Shown: positions 33,001 through 36,000 of the stretch, piece after piece
Position numbering within the stretch: position 1 is the first letter of the stretch
Layout: each line of letters begins with the position of its first letter
NCBI RefSeq assembly: GCF_003790525.1
Contig: NZ_CP033635.1
Reading direction: 5' to 3' (one strand)
DNA from: Escherichia coli
Lineage (GTDB): Bacteria; Pseudomonadota; Gammaproteobacteria; Enterobacterales; Enterobacteriaceae
Length of the DNA stretch: 64,000 bases
Position numbers: made by a program

Positions 33001-36000
33001 GAGTGGCGATAAAATCAATGTGATAAATTGGGATTATTACGCATCAGGATGGGAAATAGGGTAAATGAGTCAGGAAATTCGATACATCTACAGTGAATAT
33101 TTTGCTGATGATACTTCCCTTTGCCAAATGAAATTAACCTCTTTCTCTATTACCGCGTTTTTCCAGAAGCAAGAGATTGGGTATCAAGAGGCTGGCTGCT
33201 ATGATATGGCGTCTTGTTTTTTAAGCGAGGAAAGATTTTGAGTGCGGGACGCCTGAATAAAAAATCTCTGGGTATCGTGATGTTGTTATCGGTTGGACTG
33301 CTTTTGGCGGGCTGCTCGGGTAGCAAATCATCCGATACAGGAACGTATTCCGGCTCCGTTTACACCGTGAAACGGGGGGATACGCTATATCGTATTTCGC
33401 GCACCACGGGAACCAGCGTAAAAGAGCTGGCGCGACTGAACGGCATTTCCCCCCCTTACACCATTGAAGTTGGTCAGAAACTAAAACTGGGTGGGGCGAA
33501 AAGTAGCAGTACACGTAAATCAACCGCCAAATCAACGACCAAAACCGCATCGGTTACACCGTCATCAGCGGTACCGAAATCTTCCTGGCCGCCAGTAGGG
33601 CAACGTTGTTGGTTATGGCCAACGACAGGGAAAGTTATCATGCCGTATTCGACAGCAGATGGCGGCAATAAAGGGATTGATATCTCAGCTCCACGAGGTA
33701 CACCTATTTACGCCGCGGGTGCAGGAAAGGTGGTGTATGTGGGCAACCAGCTGCGTGGCTACGGTAATCTCATCATGATTAAACACAGTGAAGATTACAT
33801 TACGGCTTACGCCCATAATGACACGATGCTGGTAAATAATGGGCAAAGCGTGAAGGCTGGGCAAAAAATCGCCACTATGGGGAGCACTGATGCGGCATCT
33901 GTTCGCCTACATTTCCAGATTCGTTACCGTGCAACGGCAATTGATCCGCTACGTTACTTGCCGCCTCAGGGCAGCAAGCCAAAATGCTGATGGCGAATTA
34001 ATCAGCAGTCAGCAGCGCGGCACTTGCTAAGGAGAGCGTAAGGTTTATAATGCCTTACGCATCTCGAAGCGGGCGTAGTTCAATGGTAGAACGAGAGCTT
34101 CCCAAGCTCTATACGAGGGTTCGATTCCCTTCGCCCGCTCCAATTTATCTTCACCTCATCAATCTGCCATTTTTGCTGTATCTGATTTTCTATATTATCT
34201 TAATTCAATTGCTTCAGACTTTTCGCAATCGCTGTAACACTTCCCCATTTTTTTGTAAATAAAAAGCGTTTACGCAATGCAATCCTTTTGTAACAACCCA
34301 GGTAAAATACCTTATTTTCAAGTTGTTAAATAAGTGGTTATCTACGCTTTTAACAAACGATTGATGGAATCTTTTATGAAAGGGAAATCTACATTAACTC
34401 TTCTGCTCGCTGGTATATTTTCGTGCGGCACATGCCAGGCGACAGGGGCAGAAGTGACGAGTGAATCTGTATTTAACATTCTTAATTCCACGGGGGCAGC
34501 AACTGATAAAAGTTATTTATCGTTAAATCCAGATAAGTATCCTAATTATCGTCTTCTGATTCACTCAGCCAAATTAAAAAATGAAATAAAGAGCCACTAT
34601 ACCAAAGACGAAATTCAAGGATTGTTAACATTAACAGAAAATACACGAAAGTTAACGTTGACGGAGAAACCCTGGGGAACATTTATTCTTGCTTCTACTT
34701 TCGAAGATGACAAAACAGCGGCAGAAACCCACTATGATGCTGTCTGGCTGAGGGATAGTTTATGGGGCTATATGGCATTAGTATCAGATCAGGGAAATAG
34801 TGTAGCAGCAAAAAAGGTTCTGCTCACTCTGTGGGATTATATGTCTACGCCCGACCAGATTAAGCGGATGCAGGACGTCATTAGCAACCCAAAACGACTG
34901 GATGGTATTCCTGGGCAAATGAATGCTGTACATATCCGATTTGACAGCAACTCCCCCGTTGATGGCAGATGTGCAGGAAGAAGGCAAGCCGCAGCTGTGG
35001 AACCATAAACAAAATGATGCGTTAGGTCTTTATCTTGATCTCCTTATACAAGCAATCGACACTGGTACTATTAACGCTGAAGATTGGCAAAAAGGTGACC
35101 GATTAAAATCGGTTGCGCTGCTGATTGCTTATCTGGATAAAGCCAATTTCTATATTATGGAAGATTCCGGAGCGTGGGAAGAAGATGCCCGATTAAACAC
35201 ATCTTCCGTTGCACTGGTGACCTCTGGACTGGAACGTTTGTCAAACCTACTCTCGAAGAAAGACTCTGTTTTTGTCTCTGATTTACTACGCGAAGCTAAA
35301 GCCAATGAACTGGATGCAACTTTTTCAACAACGAGGTTGAACCACCTCATAGATAAAGGTTATGAAAGAATAACGTTACAGCTTGATTTAGGGGGAGAAT
35401 CCCCAGGTTATCTGGAAAAAGATAAACATTACAGAGAAGCCGATGCGGCTTTACTTAATGTTATTTATCCTGCAAATCTTTCAAAGATAAATACCAGAAG
35501 AAAAGAGCAAGTTCTAAAAATAGTTAAAAAACTAGCAGGTCCGTATGGTATAAAAAGATACGAGAAGGATAATTATCAGTCGGCAAATTTTTGGTTCAAT
35601 GATATTAAAACCGATACCGATCAAAATTCACATGCGAAAAGAGAAATGAGCTTCATTCCATCAACAGAAGCAGAATGGTTTTTTGACTCATGGTATGCAA
35701 AATCAGCAGCAATTGTTTATAAAGAATCAAGAAAAGAAGAGTATTTGAATGACTCTGTGCAATTTATGAATAGATCATTGGCCCAAATAACAGGCGAGAA
35801 TATGATTGGTGCAAATGGCAGGAGTGTACCTGAAATGGCACTTCCCGAAAGCTATAACTATATCCACAAGTCGGGAACTTTGCATGAAGCGCCAAGCCCT
35901 ATCATTCCGCTAAATTGGTCGAAAGCTTCAATGACTCTCATGTTGAAAGAGATGTCCAACCTTATCAATGATGAGGGAAATAAATAGTTTTCATAATGAG

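Follow-up and report, generated by a model that had tools for sequence, protein, structure and literature searches.

The two overlapping open reading frames (ORFs) at positions 34376–35987 of the analysed Escherichia coli DNA (the window, a stretch of 64,000 nt from contig NZ_CP033635.1) belong to a single gene, E. coli pkgA/ygeQ, which opens the ETT2 type III secretion island beside glyU. What separates them is an ordinary frameshift of a single base, private to the strain and not programmed, in a gene that has been described before and is in decay across E. coli. The lesion is probably a genuine recent mutation, in which one T was duplicated at 34959/34960, within codon 195.

One gene at the junction of glyU and ETT2

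The original prediction had described two same-strand ORFs of 224 and 354 aa that overlap by about 85 bp and that a single indel would fuse into a protein of roughly 535 aa. Both statements were confirmed. The ORFs occupy frames 2 and 0 and share 86 nt (34923–35008), and deletion of one base joins them into 1611 nt encoding 536 aa. The length of 224 aa for the 5' ORF refers to an alternative GTG start at 34334, the RefSeq-style start being ATG 34376. The features of the locus are the following:

34069..34142, + strand: tRNA-Gly (anticodon CCC), glyU, the chromosomal anchor adjoining the ETT2 island (ARAGORN; annotated at the same place in relatives)
34376..35987, + strand: pkgA/ygeQ (GH15-like glycoside hydrolase), 1612 nt against 1611 nt in intact alleles, broken by a +1-nt insertion (alignment to intact alleles; RefSeq annotation)
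34376..35008, + strand: 5' ORF fragment from ATG 34376, 210 aa; native residues 1–194 or 1–195, an out-of-frame tail of 15–16 residues, TAA at 35006–35008
34923..35987, + strand: 3' ORF fragment, 354 aa; out of frame for the first 13 codons, native from M196 (ATG 34962–34964)
34953..34957, + strand: C5 run in the S193-P194 codons TCC CCC, unmutated; the CCC-G quadruplet lies directly 5' of the extra T
34959..34960, + strand: lesion in codon 195, TT in place of the single T of all other alleles (GTTG versus GTG; allele alignment)
36054..36233, + strand: small ORF of 59 aa, a GhoT/OrtT-family toxin-like membrane protein (ECs3735/ydcX-like), separate from the frameshifted gene (annotation in relatives)

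The lesion was placed by aligning four other alleles (the intact L001, L002, L003 and L005), and alignment to intact homologues, which had been proposed as the way to find the exact indel, thus puts the extra T at 34959/34960. The plausible slippage site suggested earlier, a CCCCC run at 34944–34948, did not hold: the run is actually at 34953–34957 and is unchanged, and the indel is a T-to-TT duplication 2 nt 3' of it, after an intervening G. Homopolymer slippage within the C5 run was accordingly rejected, the run length being unchanged and the extra T lying outside it. Translation from 34376 follows the native protein to about residue 195 and then enters an out-of-frame tail, ...DGRCAGRRQAAAVEP, that stops at 35006. 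The 5' fragment retains the signal peptide and the W-x-R-D motif and contains neither of the two candidate catalytic glutamates.

The repaired 536-aa product matches WP_024175775.1, which the closest relatives TUM1586 and CUVET17-1418 encode intact, at 100% identity, and a search with it retrieved 267 homologues; therefore the two ORFs are not a chance pair. The homologues include proteins from Escherichia albertii (76% identity), Yersinia enterocolitica (~60%), Commensalibacter, Elusimicrobiota, Planctomycetota, Clostridiales, Bifidobacterium and Bdellovibrionales. Two features do appear in some annotations: in O157 Sakai ECs3736/pkgA, of 1059 bp and homologous to K-12 b2863, is listed apart from ECs3737, of 606 bp and homologous to b2862 (PMC3977695), K-12 has b2862 and b2863, and several RefSeq records read 'ygeQ | hypothetical protein'. 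These could be taken to mean two independent adjacent, overlapping genes, but the split in those genomes is itself the product of a lesion (a 5-bp deletion or a nonsense codon 265). Moreover, the 46 aligned homologues come from several phyla and each is a single in-frame protein (490–608 aa), and the break falls within a strongly conserved block (H186, R188, F189, D198, Q206, W208 and H210–A215 are invariant in the 46-homologue alignment), so that conserved residues stand on both sides of the junction. One continuous (alpha/alpha)6 barrel also covers both halves in the predicted model. Homologues that were independent adjacent genes had been named as an outcome that would speak against a single gene; those found show one gene, and the probability of a two-gene arrangement is negligible on the combined evidence of alignment, conserved residues and continuous fold.

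The position of the gene is equally clear. A megablast search matched the locus in ~4,000 of 5,426 complete E. coli genomes, always on the chromosome, and RefSeq names it either 'glycoside hydrolase family 15 protein' or 'ygeQ'. On its 5' side are actS (ygeR) and the tRNA-Gly gene, and on its 3' side the GhoT/OrtT-family small toxin gene, eivF, eivG/sctC and the remaining type III secretion cluster. The placement of a GH15-like gene at an island/tRNA junction is thereby borne out by the tRNA-Gly gene at 34069–34142 and a GC drop from 0.505 upstream to 0.369 downstream in the island, pkgA/ygeQ itself having a GC content of 0.40. That glyU adjoins ETT2 is on record (PMC3977695, PMC2808357), and the small toxin-like ORF is listed as ECs3735 (PMC3977695). 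The known pkgA/ygeQ genes of O157:H7 Sakai, EAEC 042 and K-12 lie at the same locus, with the same neighbours, and share 97–100% nucleotide identity with the gene described here. The name pkgA stands for 'phosphorylase kinase and glucoamylase' in the literature (PMC3977695, PMC2808357), where the product is described as glucoamylase-like and phosphorylase-kinase-like (PMC2808357, PMC3977695).

Decay of pkgA/ygeQ and the origin of the extra T

Splitting or truncation of the gene in O157 and K-12 was already on record. The +T at codon 195 differs from the O157 5-bp deletion, from the K-12-type nonsense codon plus 3' deletion and from the other alleles found. Of the 5,426 complete genomes, 1,440 gave no match and in ~1,000 more the match covers <80% of the gene; pkgA/ygeQ is visibly dispensable. 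In order to survey the lesions, 60 carrier records were taken evenly down the match ranking, with the following result:

In-frame length, single annotated feature: 31/60 records
Full-length, with two annotated CDS (nonsense codon 265 verified in NCTC10973): 6/60
O157-type 5-bp deletion: 4/60
+5-bp insertion: 1/60
-1 deletion near the 3' end: 2/60
Truncated or IS-interrupted: 16/60

At least six independent lesion types thus occur in pkgA/ygeQ. One arose within the same clade as the present genome, strain GN03551 carrying an independent -1 deletion in a G5 run (window positions 34488–34492). Other ETT2 genes are flagged as disrupted in the nearest relatives, namely a YscQ/HrcQ homologue, SpaN/EivJ and yqeK with an IS3 element; between those relatives and the window no indel was found in the regions of these genes. 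For the 'mutational attrition' of ETT2, PMC3977695, PMC11068852 and PMC2808357 cite Ren et al. 2004. ETT2 is a low-GC island at glyU where strain-specific frameshifts, deletions and IS insertions affect many genes. The extra T is one further private allele of this kind and does not differ in principle from what is known of that attrition, of which it would represent one more step.

The lesion is private to this genome. With a 161-nt query centred on the site, the extra T was found in 0 of 3,712 matching complete genomes, the best match being 160/161. A 35-mer containing the mutation had no exact match in a collection of species-representative genomes and none in a collection of metagenome contigs, where the control, the wild-type 34-mer, was present in 66 contigs. 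Four versions of the frameshifted ORF products had no exact match in a collection of ~15 billion proteins, a lookup that depends on the start codons chosen and in which the GTG-start version, written with V instead of M, was uninformative. Over the whole 64 kb, eight substitutions and only this one indel distinguish the window from the closest relative, CUVET17-1418; the assembly is thus not indel-noisy. The insertion is therefore either very recent or an isolated error.

If it were an error of sequencing or assembly, the organism would possess the intact 1611-nt gene and the extra T would be a base-calling or polishing artefact near the C5 run. Such an origin would account for an insertion that is unique among all sequences searched and for the otherwise identical intact allele of the nearest relatives; furthermore, a private single-base indel located 2 nt from a C5 homopolymer resembles an error. 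However, the change from T to TT lies outside the homopolymer and leaves its length unaltered, it is the sole indel in 64 kb, beside the eight substitutions, and real independent indels are common in pkgA/ygeQ, including one in the same clade. Taking these points together, we consider an artefact unlikely, albeit deserving of consideration, and infer that the extra T is a true mutation and not a miscalled base.

Consequences of the frameshift and possible recoding

With a T duplicated in codon 195, the frame is lost and translation ends at the stop at 35006, leaving a stub of ~210 aa. The stub keeps the signal peptide and the W-x-R-D region and is devoid of the general-acid motif W267-E-E, the region of R394/D398/W406 and E491, the candidate for the general base. 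In turn, the 3' ORF is without a signal peptide and without the first part of the barrel. The allele is therefore a null as the sequence stands. A promoter/terminator consensus scan found promoter-like sites to be no more common than in shuffled sequences.

A programmed frameshift had been offered as one of the explanations for the overlapping frames and turned out to be unsupported. The two frames require a +1 shift. The overlap contains neither an X-XXY-YYZ heptamer nor an RF2-type CUU-UGA site nor a Shine-Dalgarno-like stimulator, and the downstream RNA is no more stable than shuffled sequences (z = +0.68). The frameshift site is also unconserved, the extra T being present in no other genome or contig searched. 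Programmed frameshifting was consequently rejected on the grounds of motifs, structure and conservation.

A weaker form of recoding deserves separate mention, namely that a +1 shift in the overlap keeps the gene partly functional. CCC-N sequences are classic +1 shift-prone sites, known from work on tRNA-Pro, m1G37 and EF-P, and a CCC-G quadruplet stands immediately 5' of the extra T, the required shift being +1. If tRNA-Pro slipped from CCC to CCG at 34955–34958, the frame would be restored with V195L as the sole change (...S-N-S-P-L-M-A-D-V...), and residues 194 and 195 both vary within the family. Against this stand the lack of an RF2-type motif, stimulator, slippery heptamer or unusual downstream structure in the overlap, and the confinement of the frameshift to a single genome, the reverse of the conservation seen in programmed frameshifts. 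Functional recoding or leaky expression is thus extremely unlikely. Spontaneous slippage is expected at ~1% or less in wild-type cells; at this low level, +1 slippage at CCC-G could yield some full-length protein, so that 'null' is perhaps not absolute.

Predicted fold, active site and export of the intact protein

An absence of similarity to GH15 proteins in database searches had been stated as grounds for abandoning the family assignment; similarity was found and is confirmed by the fold. At the level of sequence the signal is marginal. The repaired 536-aa protein passes the cut-off of Pfam PF00723 (23.9 bits versus 22), whereas of the fragments as encoded the 3' ORF reaches 19.9 bits, below 22, and the 5' ORF has no match; NCBIfam returned one negligible match (14.9 versus 820.7 bits). 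The only solved structures detectable by sequence are phosphorylase kinase (PhK) alpha and beta (profile E = 6.8e-7 and 6.9e-5). Structural comparison gave the following values, with which Foldseek is in agreement:

Kribbella flavida isomaltose glucohydrolase 5Z3A: 33.9
Dextran dextrinase: 28.9
PhK alpha / beta: 28.8 / 28.7
Bacterial glucoamylase 1LF6: 27.6
Aspergillus niger glucoamylase: 26.6
Glucodextranase: 25.3

The entry 5Z3A is the Kribbella flavida isomaltose glucohydrolase KfIG (PMC12446779). The intact 536-aa product is an exported protein and, as judged from the predicted model, a GH15-family (alpha/alpha)6 barrel. Relative to the inverting alpha-glucohydrolases of GH15 (glucoamylase, glucodextranase, trehalase, isomaltose glucohydrolase), PkgA has 11–15% identity to the characterised enzymes and differs from them in an extra N-terminal segment of ~110 residues that includes the signal peptide.

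The putative active site was examined by alignment to A. niger glucoamylase, whose catalytic-domain query agrees exactly with PDB 3EQA across 442 residues. When the family was aligned to this enzyme globally with hhalign, the result was nonsensical; local hhalign/hmmsearch matches were statistically weak, yet regions S1–S4 line up. The key elements are these:

34745..34756, + strand: W124-L-R126-D127, GH15 conserved region 1, placed by hhalign opposite W52-T-R54-D55 of A. niger glucoamylase
35175..35183, + strand: W267-E268-E269, GH15 region 3 (alpha5-alpha6 loop); invariant in 46 homologues
35847..35849, + strand: E491, candidate general-base catalyst (region S5, alpha11-alpha12 loop); invariant in 46 homologues

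The first of these is the glucoamylase-like W-x-R-D motif of the original prediction, which is thereby borne out; R126 is invariant, W124 and D127 are conserved in >=90% of the 46 homologues, and the nearby Y120 aligns with Y48 of the fungal enzyme. W208..D214 aligns with W120..D126 (region S2, W..Q.D). W267-E268-E269 aligns with W178-E179-E180, which places E268 opposite the general acid E179, and the WE of this region also aligns with D-F-G-I-W-E-R of PhK alpha. R394/Y395/D398/W406 align with R305/Y306/D309/W317 (region S4, RY..D.Y...W). The residues of the aligned regions S1–S4 are all invariant or >=90% conserved in the family.

GH15 enzymes carry the general base in the loop before the last helix (PMC12446779). 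In the model, E491 is predicted to lie in the loop between the last two long helices, 454–469 and 513–533, and it precedes L-N-W514-S-K-A by 23 residues, as E400 of glucoamylase precedes L-T-W417-S-Y-A by 17. E491 and E400 were left unpaired by hhalign/hmmsearch, which put L-P-E-S-Y opposite L-T-W-S-Y. The position of E491 makes it a putative general base, and enzymatic activity of intact PkgA is likewise putative.

The D1 domains of PhK alpha and beta offer an instructive comparison. They are among the top structural matches to PkgA, with 19–21% identity and with the WE and RF/Y..D.Y motifs in alignment. Both PhK alpha and PhK beta, however, are five-domain regulatory subunits of ~1,100–1,200 aa within a kinase complex, whereas PkgA is a stand-alone exported bacterial protein. 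In PhK alpha, D1 has both catalytic glutamates and no detectable hydrolase activity (PMC10978961).

The amino terminus bears on where the intact protein would reside:

34376..34426, + strand: signal peptide with candidate lipobox (MKGKSTLTLLLAGIFS-C17) (sequence pattern)

It comprises K2 and K4, the hydrophobic core LTLLLAGIF and S16-C17, and G-I-F-S-C17 fits the lipobox pattern; we take the N-terminus to follow a PROSITE PS51257-type rule, with an atypical F at position -2. The E. albertii homologue has V-L-A-C, and the Yersinia homologues have signal-peptidase-I-type sites instead. Sec-type or lipobox signals are present in most Gram-negative homologues and absent from those of Bifidobacterium and Clostridiales. 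Judging from the pattern, the intact protein is probably lipid-anchored. The description of the gene as encoding a lipoprotein is therefore plausible: the lipobox pattern (K2, K4, hydrophobic core, C17) stands, and lipidation itself follows from it only as a prediction.

In the literature PkgA has been proposed to act, as an effector of ETT2, on the glycogen metabolism of the host; this speculation is relayed in PMC3977695 and made for EC042-3075, with reference to Pallen 2003, in the EAEC 042 genome paper (PMC2808357). The genomic context in E. coli is that of a T3SS island, pkgA/ygeQ standing at the head of ETT2 and being followed by eivF, sctC and further T3SS genes. An effector would be expected to have an N-terminus without a Sec signal, and a pattern-based test found a Sec/lipobox-like one. 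Association with a T3SS would also be expected outside E. coli, and homologues occur in Commensalibacter, Bifidobacterium, Elusimicrobiota and Clostridiales. In all three distant neighbourhoods examined (Yersinia, Commensalibacter and Bifidobacterium) there were no T3SS genes nearby, and no conserved operon hinting at a substrate was seen across them. In addition, pkgA/ygeQ persists in E. coli genomes from which ETT2 is largely deleted. The Sec/lipobox signal, the homologues without a T3SS and the persistence without ETT2 argue against an injected effector, and a periplasmic or outer-membrane-anchored GH15-type protein is favoured on these sequence-based grounds. A bolder reading, in which the present allele is a leaky low-expression state and, as a separate point, PkgA is a periplasmic/outer-membrane-anchored alpha-glucosidase-like enzyme and not an ETT2 effector, is very unlikely as a whole.

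For the genome in question, the correct annotation is one frameshifted pkgA/ygeQ pseudogene and not two hypothetical ORFs. Beyond annotation the finding matters little, adding a private lesion to the known decay of ETT2. The Sec/lipoprotein-type signal and the T3SS-free homologues weaken the long-standing speculation about an effector acting on host glycogen. The PkgA family is a divergent branch of GH15; among solved structures, those closest to it in sequence are the enigmatic glucoamylase-like domains of phosphorylase kinase from animals, and biochemistry on an intact bacterial member could inform what the PhK D1 domains bind.

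Relatives of the PkgA family

Among proteins of solved structure, those closest in sequence to the bacterial PkgA family come from animal phosphorylase kinase: the glucoamylase-like D1 domains of its alpha and beta subunits, which share 19–21% identity with PkgA in a structure-based alignment. Characterised microbial GH15 enzymes are all more distant than these D1 domains (11–15% identity). The family is widespread among gut-associated and insect-associated bacteria.

Region downstream of pkgA

Two features lie on the 3' side of the gene:

35999–36027, + strand: GC-rich inverted repeat (GGCGGTCCT...AGGACCGCT), right after the pkgA stop codon
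36054–36233, + strand: hydrophobic 59-aa ORF directly downstream of pkgA, a GhoT/OrtT-family toxin (ECs3735/ydcX-like) according to the annotation of relatives

The inverted repeat resembles a stem-loop separating pkgA from the toxin-like ORF. It is not followed by a T-tract and was absent from the output of the terminator scan.

Other ETT2 genes and ygeV

In the nearest relative, the annotation pipeline PGAP calls further ETT2 genes disrupted, at positions corresponding to 43954–45803 (+ strand) and about 58700–60000 of the window:

SpaN/EivJ: split annotation
YscQ/HrcQ (epaO) homologue: 'frameshifted'
yqeK: cut by an IS3-family element

Across both intervals the relative displays no indel with respect to the window. 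Since eivJ of the window is one unbroken ORF of 300 aa (43954–44856), the SpaN/EivJ split could be an artefact of annotation.

In ygeV, a sigma-54 activator gene on the + strand, the window differs from both sequenced close relatives compared (L005 and L006, the latter being strain GN03551) by two substitutions, at positions 28607 and 28961; these are 354 nt apart and both synonymous (A422 and L540).

Altered pkgA alleles in other strains

In some pkgA alleles, including those of WP5-S18-ESBL-07 (L009) and the sequence H113, a single base is deleted (-1) 20 nt short of the stop codon, at reference position 1591, resulting in a 549-aa product with an altered, longer C-terminus; PGAP still labels these alleles intact. 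A different -1 deletion, located in a G5 run (L006 22488–22492, equivalent to 34488–34492 of the window), was found in pkgA of GN03551, a member of the same clade as the window and only 4 SNPs apart from it over 48 kb. This deletion is independent of the window's own lesion and, therefore, two separate pkgA frameshifts have occurred within one very young lineage.
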